Notes under the pieces: generated by a model
Told to the model about the DNA's origin: nothing
The model's database searches: none
Seen by the model: only the letters and a program-made list of their open reading frames with translations
Assembly (NCBI GenBank): GCA_964536725.1
Contig: CAZHYJ010000003.1
Location: 39,065-103,064 of the forward strand
Direction of reading: 5' to 3'
From: an uncultured Gammaproteobacteria bacterium
GTDB taxonomy: Bacteria; Patescibacteriota; Patescibacteriia; Magasanikbacterales; GWA2-37-8
DNA length: 64,000 nt
In this document: positions 39,874 to 53,522 of the stretch, one piece after another
How the letters are laid out: each line of letters opens with the position of its first letter
Position numbering within the stretch: position 1 is the stretch's first letter
Made by a program: the position numbers and the translations under genes

Positions 39874-41298
39874 ATGCCGTTGGTATTGGCGACTCCATTT
39901 GGTTTTAGTATTGATCTGACTTTCTGGGCAGAGTTATTTTCGCAACCAACAGTTGATATTATTAACTCTCTTTATGCGATTGTAGGATGGACAATACTAG
40001 CTCTGGTATTTTTCTTTATGGGCAGTGAGTTGTGGGTTGGTTATCGCACTACTTTATATACCAAAAAATGGCAATGGGTGGTTTTGGCAGTAGATGTTCC
40101 TCCTCTTTATATCCAGTCTCCCAAAGCGGTAGAGCAGATTTTTGCGCATTTAAGTGGTGCTAAGGTTAGTGTTAATCTTTGGCAAAAATATTGGATAGGA
40201 AAAAAACAAAAATGGTTTAGTCTTGAAATCGTGAGTTTGGAGGGGTATATTCAGTTTTTAATTCGTTGTGAAGCAGAATATCGTGATTTGGTAGAAGCAG
40301 CAATTTACGCGCAGTATGCAGAGGCGGAAATTACTGAAGTGGAAGATTATGTTGGAATCTTGGCGGATAGTTATCCCAATGATAAGACCGATATTTACGG
40401 CTTGGAATTTAGTTTGGCTGATCATGATGCGTTTCCAATTCGGACCTATCCGAGTTTTGAATATAGTATGAGTAAGGATGTGGTTTTTTCTGATCCGATG
40501 GCGGCGATTTTGGAAAACTTTAGTCGCATTGGTAAAGGAGAGAATTTGCTTTTGCAAATTATTGTTGAGCCTACCAGTAATGCTTGGAAAGAAAAAGGAA
40601 TTGAGCTGGTAAAGAAACTGATAGCTAACAAAAAAGAAGCGCCAAAAAGTTCGATAATTACAACAATTGGCCAGATACCAAAATTATTAGCACAAGAAGC
40701 GATTAATATCTGGGACTGGAATTTTGAGCCAACAGAAAGGGACGCGGTAAAAGAAGTAGCAGGTAAAGTATCTGATCTTTCTCCTGGGGGGAAAGACACG
40801 TTGCAAGCGATTGAGGATAAAATTTCTAAAATTGGTTTTAAGACTAAGATTCGGTTGTTATATACAGCCAATAACGAAGTGTTTAATCCTAGTCGTTGTG
40901 TTGATGGTTTTGTTGGTGCGTTGAATCAGTTCAGTGTGATGAGTCGTAATGCGATTGTTCCTCACGACGATACTGTGGCGCATTATGCCTTTAGCAACTA
41001 TCGCACACTTGCCAAAAAAGCACTGTGTGTAGGTGCTTATAAAAAACGTAAATTAAAAACTGGTGGTAATCCATATATTTTGAATATTGAAGAATTGGCG
41101 ACTATCTGGCATTTCCCATTACCGTTTGTAAAGACACCGTTGTTGCAGAAGGCAGAAACCAAGCGCGGCGAACCACCAATGAATTTACCGTTGGAAGTAA
41201 GCGACGCTGGTTCAAGAATGAAAAAGATTACACCGGCAACAGAGGGGAAGCCAGAAGGAAATTTGCCGGAGCCGCCAGCGGACTTACCTTATGCCTAA
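39874..41298 (+). CDS. membrane-anchored paralog of the N-terminal domain of the VirB4-like ATPase at 50471-53023 (no ATPase domain)
   Basis: N-terminal TM helix; FSLEIVSLEGYIQFLIRCEAEYRDLVEAAIYAQYAEAEITEVEDY aligns with ISFEIVAKDNKITFYVSIPDKVKEFVEQQIHAQYPHAQIDIETDY in the ATPase; shared C-terminal motif WHFPLPF...KRGEPPMNLP vs LWHLPTPY...RKAPPPVNMP. Confidence 0.5.
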   Translation: MPLVLATPFGFSIDLTFWAELFSQPTVDIINSLYAIVGWTILALVFFFMGSELWVGYRTTLYTKKWQWVVLAVDVPPLYIQSPKAVEQIFAHLSGAKVSVNLWQKYWIGKKQKWFSLEIVSLEGYIQFLIRCEAEYRDLVEAAIYAQYAEAEITEVEDYVGILADSYPNDKTDIYGLEFSLADHDAFPIRTYPSFEYSMSKDVVFSDPMAAILENFSRIGKGENLLLQIIVEPTSNAWKEKGIELVKKLIANKKEAPKSSIITTIGQIPKLLAQEAINIWDWNFEPTERDAVKEVAGKVSDLSPGGKDTLQAIEDKISKIGFKTKIRLLYTANNEVFNPSRCVDGFVGALNQFSVMSRNAIVPHDDTVAHYAFSNYRTLAKKALCVGAYKKRKLKTGGNPYILNIEELATIWHFPLPFVKTPLLQKAETKRGEPPMNLPLEVSDAGSRMKKITPATEGKPEGNLPEPPADLPYA

Positions 41299-41314
41299 AA
41301 CAAAAATCCCGATT

Positions 41315-41833
41315 TTACTCGGGATTTTTTTGTGTTTGAATTTGAGTGGTGAGTTGTCGTATGTATTCGTATCCTCCGACCAAAACTGTGGTGTAAAAAA
41401 TGTCGGCCATTAATTGGTTGCGAAAGAAGGGGAGGGCGGCGAAATAGCTGGTGAATAATCCGGTTAGGTTTGCCGGATACATTGTGCCAAATGCCCATAC
41501 TGCCCAGTTGGTGACAAGAAAGAATATTGTCGAACCAACGACTGTGCCGGTGGCGATTTTTTTCCAACCCTTTTCTTGGGTGGTGTAACCGATTACGGCC
41601 ATTAAAGTGAAGGATAAATAGACTGAGAGCATGATGGGGAGACCATAGAAGCCAATAAACAGGTCGCTGACGAGCATGGCGATGAGTGGAATGGTTAGGG
41701 CGTATTTATTTGGTAAATATCGGCCAGCAAAAAACGCAACTGCTCCGATTGCCGTAAAATTTGGTAGATGAGGTGCGAAACGGGTAGCCAGACCAAGAAT
41801 TATTAGTAATATTGCTGGTAGATATTTTTTCAT
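41315..41833 (-). CDS. ECF-transporter S-component-like small membrane protein
   Basis: 172 aa with about 5-6 TM helices; resembles vitamin-specific S components; identification tentative. Confidence 0.4.
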   Translation of the reverse strand: MKKYLPAILLIILGLATRFAPHLPNFTAIGAVAFFAGRYLPNKYALTIPLIAMLVSDLFIGFYGLPIMLSVYLSFTLMAVIGYTTQEKGWKKIATGTVVGSTIFFLVTNWAVWAFGTMYPANLTGLFTSYFAALPFFRNQLMADIFYTTVLVGGYEYIRQLTTQIQTQKNPE

Positions 41834-53023: not shown

Positions 53024-53024
53024 G

Positions 53025-53522
53025 TTAGCGAGTTTGTTTATTTTTTAACTCCATTATTTTATCGGTTTTTATCTTTGCTTCTTGTTCTAAGAAAAAATGG
53101 TTAATGCCGGGTAAAATTTTGAGCCATTCGATAATAAGGCGCAGAATCTTTTTTACTTTAACATGTGTAGAACGTAAGAGTTCGCTGATTTTTGCAGCAG
53201 TTTTTTCTCCTTTGATTTTAAATTCTTGTTTGGCGATTGGGGAAAGACGTTGAAAGGAATCGCCTAGTCCATCTTCAAGTATCTTCTCTATCTTCACGGC
53301 TAATTCATCTCTGACTTGAGGGACGACTACTGGTCTGCGTATTTGGGGTAAACGAACTCTGGCCGGTGGTTTATTTTCGGTTTCTTTTGGTCTGGCTTCT
53401 GCAGTCGTTTGTGCTTTTTCCGTTTCGGCGTTTTTAGCTGTTTCTATAACCGGCTGGTTTTCCGCGCCTTCGGTTTTTAAATTTTCGAGATTAGCTTTTT
53501 TGTCGCTCTCAATATCGGCCAT
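53025..53522 (-). CDS. hypothetical protein (charged N-terminus), first gene of the operon with the VirB4-like ATPase
   Basis: 165 aa; stop overlaps the ATPase start. Confidence 0.4.
   Translation of the reverse strand: MADIESDKKANLENLKTEGAENQPVIETAKNAETEKAQTTAEARPKETENKPPARVRLPQIRRPVVVPQVRDELAVKIEKILEDGLGDSFQRLSPIAKQEFKIKGEKTAAKISELLRSTHVKVKKILRLIIEWLKILPGINHFFLEQEAKIKTDKIMELKNKQTR

Follow-up and report, generated by a model that had tools for sequence, protein, structure and literature searches.

Here we present an analysis of two genes for membrane-anchored proteins in a 64,000-nucleotide stretch of Patescibacterial DNA, called the window below (contig CAZHYJ010000003.1 of assembly GCA_964536725.1, positions 39,065 to 103,064). 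On balance, we favour the reading that the larger product, of 850 aa, is a membrane-anchored cytoplasmic motor of the VirD4/TrwB branch, that is, of the type IV coupling proteins (T4CPs). We designate it module A. The 474-aa product of the other gene would then be the N-terminal half of a split paralogue, module B. An earlier note, made from the letters of the window, had taken the first protein for a VirB4/TraC-like energiser of a type IV secretion system (T4SS) and the second for its separately encoded partner. By analogy with plasmid-encoded homologues, the most likely role of both modules would be that of a membrane-docked substrate translocase, with DNA as the substrate.

Sequence profiles assigned the ATPase to the coupling proteins. 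Four Pfam families exceed their gathering cut-offs on the ATPase domain: TrwB_AAD_bind (1.8e-13, 50.6 bits against a cut-off of 20.5, covering residues 424-778), T4SS-DNA_transf (8.5e-11, 41.8 bits against 20.1), TraG-D_C (30.2 bits against 22) and DUF87. Among the VirB4 families of Pfam, CagE_TrbE_VirB, P-loop_TraG and TraC_F_IV gave no match and AAA_10 stayed under its cut-off (E=0.038, 13.5 bits against 27.5); FtsK_SpoIIIE was likewise sub-threshold (E=0.011) and matched only around Walker A. TrwB and then DotL head the PDB sequence matches, both for the single protein and for a profile of the 44-sequence family alignment. VirB4 reaches E=0.69 with the single protein and is not among the PDB sequence matches of the profile. 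HerA matches were weaker than T4CP matches in NCBIfam, fold and PDB-profile comparisons, and the protein has neither the multi-transmembrane N-terminus and gamma domain of FtsK nor an assigned HAS barrel of HerA. On this sequence evidence the 850-aa ATPase belongs to the VirD4/TrwB branch and not to VirB4. The NCBIfam equivalogs TraD and CD1115 score far under their cut-offs, so it is a divergent member of the T4CPs. A published survey of Patescibacteria (Quinonero-Coronel et al. 2025, PMC12102498) agrees: its Table S3 entry for KKQ41333.1 (P0006), an orthologue with 81% identity, reads T4CP, by the t4cp1 profile of CONJScan at 98% coverage, with VirB4 proximity given as No.

The open reading frame (ORF) of module A and all motifs that the earlier note had quoted from it are present as stated, among them IDPHGD at residues 464-469, and the membrane anchor and the membership of the FtsK/HerA superfamily were confirmed. 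A single N-terminal transmembrane (TM) helix is followed by a domain of Pfam family PF26449 (DUF8128) and then by the ATPase domain (Table 1). In the AlphaFold2 (AF2) model of the full-length protein (predicted local distance difference test, pLDDT, 72.6), the TM region forms one long helix, residues 18-53. The same model places eight helices (residues 508-636) between the strands at 486-489 and 640-644. This predicted insertion separates Walker A from Walker B in the P-loop domain and may be the counterpart of the all-alpha domain of coupling proteins such as R388 TrwB, Legionella DotL and F TraD. TrwB, the best PDB sequence match, is ~20% identical over 330 structurally aligned residues. Catalytic-residue conservation was scored over the 44-sequence alignment, in which Lys443 of Walker A, Asp689 and Glu690 of Walker B, and Gln718 are invariant; this suggests that the protein would be an active enzyme. 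Full-length homologues with 49-90% identity occur in at least 80 GTDB species, over 100 columns of the alignment are invariant, and identity between classes is ~50%.

The predicted fold, unlike any sequence profile, resembles VirB4, and to that extent the VirB4-like architecture proposed earlier is supported at the level of the fold. Like R388 TrwK, module A has an N-terminal domain and then an ATPase within ~800 aa. For the full-length model, the Foldseek alignment to TrwK/VirB4 extends over ~800 columns and scores E=3.4e-11; TrwB fits less well and covers only the C-terminal ~330 residues. For the AF2 model of the 474-aa protein (pLDDT 78.9), the six best PDB matches were all TrwK/VirB4 of R388 (best E=2.8e-5), the next match following at E=0.04. 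TM-scores to TrwK are low, from 0.23 to 0.35. These models are suggestive of a VirB4-like N-terminal domain fold in DUF8128. The DUF8128 profile found nothing among PDB sequences, reached an hhalign probability of 0.2 with pSK41 TrsD and was negative against an alignment of 30 TrsE-type VirB4 sequences, and TraC_F_IV of Pfam has no match in the 474-aa protein; the link between DUF8128 and VirB4 is thus one of predicted fold. When the whole family was compared with TrsE-type VirB4, hhalign gave a probability of 90, mainly over the ATPase that is shared across the superfamily and the last part of DUF8128.

It could be argued from these likenesses that the 850-aa protein is a VirB4-like energiser after all, that the 474-aa protein is its detached N-domain and that both form, together with the 165-aa product of the ORF upstream of the ATPase gene, one minimal machine. 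The model would be TrsD + TrsE, the split VirB4 of pGO1/pSK41, with which the present family shares a paralogue whose N-part is a separate gene upstream of the ATPase. Such a machine would account for the fit of both models to TrwK, for the fact that the hhalign alignment to TrsE-type VirB4 begins inside the end of DUF8128, and for the position of the two genes 7-10 kb apart in 7/80 species loci and in one further Magasanikbacteria genome. We nevertheless hold it to be improbable. The T4CP families pass where the VirB4 families fail, the family profile retrieves no VirB4 from PDB sequences, and DUF8128 is unlike both TrsD and the N-terminal domain of VirB4 at the profile level. Moreover, in the survey's tables the genome of KKQ41333.1, itself scored as a T4CP, has a canonical VirB4+TrsD+VirB3 locus elsewhere, the TrsD of which (KKQ41281.1) is another protein than the DUF8128 protein (PMC12102498). 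As relatives carry a canonical locus of this kind elsewhere in the genome, module A is not the minimal stand-alone apparatus that the earlier note had considered. The proximity of the two genes is also confined to one clade, and orthologues of the 474-aa protein have an adjacent ATPase of their own.

The 474-aa ORF exists as described and its homology to the N-domain of the 850-aa protein is far above chance (BLASTP E=4e-29, 25% identity over ~360 residues, 87-441 against 93-406), with WHFPLP...EPPMNLP in the shorter protein corresponding to WHLPTP...APPPVNMP in the longer. PF26449 is assigned to both by precomputed annotation on 100%-identical entries (P0001 and P0121) and is present in all listed homologues except P0160; a DUF8128 profile built in this analysis gathered 3,220 clusters at 50% identity. 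The single N-terminal TM helix of each protein is flanked by positive charge at its C-terminal end, which predicts that the DUF8128 domains face the cytoplasm. The 474-aa protein is 37-45% identical to stand-alone DUF8128 proteins of other lineages of the candidate phyla radiation (CPR) and 23-28% identical to the fused N-domain. It is closer to the stand-alone proteins, and therefore the duplication that gave rise to A and B predates the split of the sampled lineages.

Gene order in these other CPR lineages points to the ATPase to which the stand-alone domain belongs. There the order is secD, secF, DUF8128, ATPase, sometimes with a sigma70_r4 gene between secF and DUF8128. All 6 stand-alone DUF8128 genes that were looked up outside the Magasanikbacteria-type clade of the window are followed immediately by a gene for a T4CP-like ATPase of 669-827 aa. 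This B-type ATPase aligns with residues ~400-830 of the 850-aa protein at 41-46% identity, starting exactly at the domain boundary. A metagenome scan for B-type ATPases yielded 80 loci, 64 of them with enough upstream sequence to be scored, and in 49 of the 64 the DUF8128 gene lies directly upstream. L015, L022, L053, L089, L090, L092, L093 and L094 also have secD, secF and DUF8128 in this order, as do most metagenome loci of the series L108-L172. By sequence and gene order, then, the 474-aa protein represents the N-terminal part of a paralogous second module and not a partner detached from the 850-aa ATPase, as had been supposed. The B-type ATPases themselves have C-terminal tails of 250-400 aa that are low-complexity, proline-rich or basic (L090 6864-8873, L091 4869-7040, L092 11405-13888, L094 6223-8658). 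All of these tails except that of L092 carry a CxxC...RPxxCxxC zinc ribbon, which is matched by Pfam zf_Tbcl_2 in L090 and L094, and in L117 the ribbon is encoded by a separate small ORF just downstream (7762-8079).

No ATPase gene follows the stand-alone gene in the window or in L001/L002, L015, L019, L022, L023, L045, L053 and L093, all of the Magasanikbacteria type. For this type, an unlinked B-type ATPase was found on a contig of 963,177 bp and a module A gene with 78% identity on a contig of equal size, and one Magasanikbacteria genome has two T4CP matches at high profile coverage. In this lineage the B-type ATPase is unlinked from its N-half and presumably lies elsewhere in the genome, outside the window. 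The missing neighbour might also be explained if the 474-aa gene were a functionless, decaying remnant left after its ATPase was lost or moved. We regard this as very improbable, given that the reading frame is intact, that 120 homologues are 55-84% identical with 41 invariant and many near-invariant columns, that TM helix, domain and both copies of PPxNLP have been kept, and that Magasanikbacteria-type genomes hold the B-type ATPase at another position.

The junction between domain and ATPase is marked by a short peptide. In the fused protein, APPPVNMP forms the linker between the N-domain and the ATPase. In the stand-alone proteins, PPxNLP plus 1-3 residues is the C-terminal end in 130 of the 150 representatives whose C-termini were scored. 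The 474-aa protein of the window has the motif twice, as EPPMNLP at the end of the domain and as EPPADLPYA at the C-terminus. Judging from this placement, the peptide is probably the handle by which the stand-alone N-half would bind its ATPase in trans. A further motif, PFGFxxDLxFW, is near-invariant in the short extracytoplasmic N-terminus of stand-alone DUF8128 proteins, before the TM helix (window 39895-39927), and is missing from the fused paralogue.

Relatives of module A outside the CPR were found on plasmids. A tblastn search with the 850-aa protein matched 283 plasmid records from Bacillus, Streptomyces, Clostridium, haloarchaea and Sulfolobus, 14 of which cover at least 80% of the query. 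Among the full-length homologues found beyond the CPR, those closest to module A are annotated as 'DUF87 domain-containing' or as of a 'conjugative DNA transfer family' and are encoded beside Replic_Relax relaxases on monoderm plasmids; they are collinear with module A over both domains. In the Shouchella clausii plasmid NZ_CP012476, an 883-aa 'DUF87' protein aligned over residues 111-811 (E=2e-44), and its N-terminus is matched by the stand-alone DUF8128 profile with an hhalign probability of 96. Its gene abuts that of a Replic_Relax relaxase, with a VirB4 gene near. The cluster of the Embleya plasmid NZ_CP108778 consists of TrbL, PrgI, VirB4, the homologue, Replic_Relax and NlpC/P60. By this gene context, the fused DUF8128 and T4CP architecture serves as coupling protein in a class of monoderm conjugation systems. 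The occurrence of full-length homologues in conjugation clusters of Firmicutes and Actinobacteria plasmids (Bacillaceae, Streptomycetaceae) also overturns the suggestion that the machine is specific to reduced-genome bacteria. Two differences set the plasmid proteins apart: the Shouchella homologue has no N-terminal TM helix, in contrast to the CPR protein, and the plasmid genes sit beside VirB4, PrgI, TrbL, relaxase and cell-wall hydrolase genes, which the CPR genes do not. The 474-aa protein alone had no plasmid match, and no stand-alone paralogue of the N-domain was found on plasmids.

In the CPR, module A is a vertically inherited chromosomal gene. Our scan for relatives over GTDB species genomes examined 600 candidate stretches, 587 of which encode relatives; the best 80 loci were kept, and the denominators of the neighbour counts (75, 54, 55 and 50) vary with the neighbour scored. 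Throughout these 80 loci the protein is full-length and 49-80% identical, and the conserved order is cysS, small ORF, ATPase, dnaX. The ORF immediately upstream is homologous to the 165-aa ORF in 56/75 loci, dnaX follows within 3 kb on the same strand in 46/54, and cysS precedes within 4.5 kb in 35/55. With a gap of 1 nt and this recurrent neighbourhood, the 165-aa ORF and the ATPase gene are probably co-transcribed, and the operon described in the earlier note stands. The 165-aa product has a disordered acidic N-terminus, a conserved helical C-terminal part of ~95 aa and no TM helix; no family was found for it in Pfam, NCBIfam or PADLOC. Small acidic ORFs also occur upstream of module A in distant lineages, with no detectable homology to it (hhalign probability 0.1), so this operon partner is conserved only in the ABY1-like group.

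Linkage to other genes of interest was rare or restricted. A stand-alone DUF8128 gene lies within 10 kb of module A in 7/80 loci, all from Magasanikbacteria, so the proximity of the 474-aa and 850-aa genes, which the earlier note had pointed out, is confined to one clade. The type IV pilus cluster reported near the ATPase gene is indeed present in the window; pilM within 10 kb was found in 18/50 loci, again all of the Magasanikbacteria type, and a functional link to type IV pilus genes was rejected on account of this confinement. A VirB4 gene lies within 10 kb of module A in 1/80 loci. This single case is L011 (Magasanikbacteria), in which a canonical VirB4 of 618 aa (E=1e-69 to a TrsE-family profile) is encoded 7 kb downstream of module A, at 19437-21293 on the minus strand. 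The gene of module A is split into two ORFs in L039, L047 and L073, through an assembly frameshift or pseudogenisation, and in L001 (GCA_030647465.1) a diversity-generating retroelement (reverse transcriptase RVT_1 + bAvd, 16932-18349) separates module A from the stand-alone DUF8128 gene. The family had no match in IMG/VR viral contigs; with this and the lack of a plasmid match for the stand-alone protein, a mobile-element origin of the locus was discarded. Many third-party metagenome-assembled genomes among the loci L004-L083 bear titles such as 'uncultured Gammaproteobacteria bacterium' or 'uncultured Candidatus Saccharibacteria' although the gene is clearly Patescibacterial, and such titles are of no use for taxonomy.

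The survey of Patescibacteria lists 5,713 VirD4-type T4CP homologues in 2,918 of 3,035 genomes, 148 of them near virB4; genomes have ~2 T4CPs, mostly far from virB4, and its authors allow for an exapted function (PMC12102498). The published number of ~2 per genome matches modules A and B. Among those Table S3 rows examined for the genome of KKQ41333.1, none gives the stand-alone DUF8128 protein, KKQ41006.1, as a component (PMC12102498). The family is thus already catalogued, as Pfam DUF8128 and as T4CPs in the survey. We found nothing in PMC12102498 on an N-domain of the DUF8128 type, on separate fused and split forms, or on synteny with dnaX or secDF, and literature searches on PF26449 and DUF8128 found nothing. 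Within the reach of these searches, no earlier description exists of the two forms, fused and split, of their conserved gene order, of the peptide at the junction or of the coupling-protein homologues on plasmids.

The ubiquity of such orphan genes bears on the possibility that modules A and B are exapted housekeeping translocases which work independently of any T4SS, whether by pumping double-stranded DNA in segregation or replication, by importing host DNA or by helping protein export. This would explain their fixed positions by dnaX and in the secA-secD-secF region, kept across classes, and it fits the near-universal presence of T4CP homologues in genomes where few are near virB4 and relaxases are almost absent, the very high conservation (invariant columns and cross-class identity as given above), and the absence of the family from viral contigs and of its stand-alone form from plasmids. 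The zinc ribbons and basic tails of the B-type ATPases, as read from their sequences, could moreover bind nucleic acid. We take this explanation seriously and yet consider it unlikely, for among full-length homologues the nearest are coupling proteins from genuine conjugation clusters, and gene order in reduced genomes is often kept without functional linkage. FtsK is also not generally missing, ftsK being annotated in Saccharibacterium TM7x; replacement of FtsK as a specific role is weakened by this annotation.

That the ATPase serves anti-phage defence, in a system like those of HerA or mad8, is scarcely credible. PADLOC gave a mad8 match of E=1.1e-16 over the ATPase domain, with weak HerA and DndH matches, but the mad8 match is limited to the shared P-loop domain, the 474-aa and 165-aa proteins have no PADLOC match, and the conserved housekeeping position and vertical inheritance are unlike those of defence islands. 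The MADS system in particular was rejected, since mad8 matches the ATPase domain only and the adjacent genes are housekeeping genes by Pfam.

Under the coupling-protein reading that we prefer, the TM helix and DUF8128 would hold a ring of ATPase subunits, presumably a hexamer, at the membrane. DUF8128 would probably dock this ring onto a channel or partner, and the ATPase domain with its helical insertion would bind the substrate and push it through. The separate N-half of module B would engage the B-type ATPase through the PPxNLP peptide, and the motors may act with a Patescibacterial T4SS encoded elsewhere. DNA is the most likely substrate by analogy, because the plasmid homologues are encoded beside relaxases.

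Several points weigh against this reading. In place of the canonical T4CP N-terminus, a TM domain of two helices, the 850-aa protein has one TM helix and a cytoplasmic DUF8128 of ~350 aa. It further departs from VirD4/TrwB in that no relaxase or T4SS genes are adjacent, the gene being chromosomal, vertically inherited and present as fused and split paralogues; linkage to relaxase or T4SS genes was seen for the plasmid homologues only and not at the window locus. The likeness of DUF8128 to VirB4 is a Foldseek match to a predicted model, with a TM-score of 0.34, that is not reproduced by sequence profiles; in addition, VirB4 and TrsD differ from the family in that it shows no membership of theirs at the sequence level and relatives hold separate canonical VirB4 and TrsD genes. 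When the window was searched by tblastn with three B-type ATPases, only the fused gene was found, and neither a second ATPase nor a relic of one; the B-type ATPase of this genome did not turn up. The synteny with dnaX and secDF may merely be the frozen gene order of small genomes. In Southlakia epibionticum a T4CP homologue is reported to be non-essential and T4SS genes essential, with exaptation left open (PMC12102498). Patescibacteria have few relaxases (109, in 103 genomes; PMC12102498), and this makes a conjugative DNA substrate harder to argue.

A bolder proposal, which we put forward as speculative and rather unlikely, is that the DUF8128-T4CP architecture is a surviving intermediate between VirB4 and VirD4, and that Patescibacteria fixed it in fused (A) and split (B) form as near-universal housekeeping machines that carry nucleic acid or protein through the single membrane where the cell touches its host, independently of conjugation. 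If so, the modules would help to make an epibiotic way of life possible. Patescibacteria account for much of bacterial diversity and rely on hosts to supply building blocks, nucleotides among them. Their orphan T4CP genes are here given an anatomy, namely fused and split DUF8128 modules in fixed positions, with a junction peptide and plasmid relatives, so that hypotheses on the pairing of ATPase and N-domain, on docking to a T4SS and on the cargo can now be tested. The family bears on the divergence of VirB4 and VirD4 and does not constitute a new kind of machine.

Table 1. Coordinates, within the window, of the two DUF8128 genes, their domains and motifs, and their nearest neighbours
Feature	Position	Strand	Basis or remark
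Stand-alone DUF8128 protein, 474 aa, assigned as N-half of module B	39874..41298	+	ORF, BLASTP, PF26449
TM helix of 474-aa protein	39970-40038	+	hydropathy
DUF8128 domain of 474-aa protein	~40069-41199	+	
Second junction-motif copy, EPPMNLP	41170-41190	+	domain end of 474-aa protein
C-terminal peptide EPPADLPYA	41269..41295	+	last residues of 474-aa protein
Module A, fused DUF8128 and T4CP-type ATPase, 850 aa	50471..53023	-	ORF, Pfam, precomputed PF26449
Single N-terminal TM helix, residues ~19-43, predicted N-out/C-in	52895..52969	-	hydropathy, flanking charge
DUF8128 N-domain, residues ~55-405	51809..52861	-	BLASTP, invariant columns, collinear Foldseek alignment with N- and C-terminal domains of TrwK/VirB4
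Domain-end motif WHLPTP...APPPVNMP	51812-51895	-	end of fused DUF8128
T4CP-type P-loop ATPase domain, residues ~406-835	50519..51808	-	Pfam, PDB sequence matches
Walker A, GKSGSGKS, residues 437-444	51692-51715	-	motif
Walker B, LYIDEFQNF, residues 686-694	50942-50968	-	motif
AHQ, residues 716-718	50870-50878	-	motif
165-aa ORF	53025..53522	-	stops 1 nt before ATPase start
dnaX	48760..50346	-	downstream neighbour of module A; Pfam
cysS	53582..55018	-	upstream neighbour of module A; Pfam
secD (inserted peptidyl-prolyl isomerase domain) and secF	36620..39614	+	upstream of stand-alone DUF8128 gene; Pfam

The window is a housekeeping stretch, and the named homologues of both DUF8128 proteins are from Candidatus Magasanikbacteria. 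Pfam identified as neighbours secD and secF, DUF6580, dus, GT2, folD, dnaX, cysS, pilM, a response regulator, a pilin and a prepilin peptidase, which bears out the secD/secF, dnaX, cysS and pilus genes named in the earlier note. A family scan of 55 ORFs, including nearly all of at least 140 aa, revealed no other T4SS component, VirB4 or relaxase; both genes lie among housekeeping neighbours and not inside a mating-pair-formation cluster with VirB3, VirB6 and VirB8. The earlier description of a locus without a T4SS and without VirB6/8/9/10/11 is therefore correct for these parts. Its addition that VirD4 is absent is wrong, because the 850-aa ATPase is itself VirD4-like.

SecD (36620-38695) has a PpiC-type peptidyl-prolyl isomerase (Rotamase) domain inserted between the N-terminal part of P1 and the head subdomain, a fusion also present in the CPR relatives L089, L090, L093 and L094. 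In L089 and L093 secD directly follows secA, and in the window secA (18712-21477) and secD are ~15 kb apart. The intervening stretch, 21500-36600, encodes a large serine recombinase (21604-23202, minus strand), unannotated ORFs, an S49 peptidase, a Fic protein and Na/H and Na/Ca exchangers, contains low-GC patches (0.35) and is probably an integrated island. Downstream of the stand-alone DUF8128 gene and convergent with it, 41315-44068 on the minus strand encodes DUF6580, a 643-aa protein with a weak squalene-hopene-cyclase-like repeat, and DUF4430; the same trio was seen again in L023 and L027. A BRO-N domain protein (15929-16771), of a type typical of phages and mobile elements, is encoded amid housekeeping genes, with a DEAD-box helicase gene and secA downstream of it.

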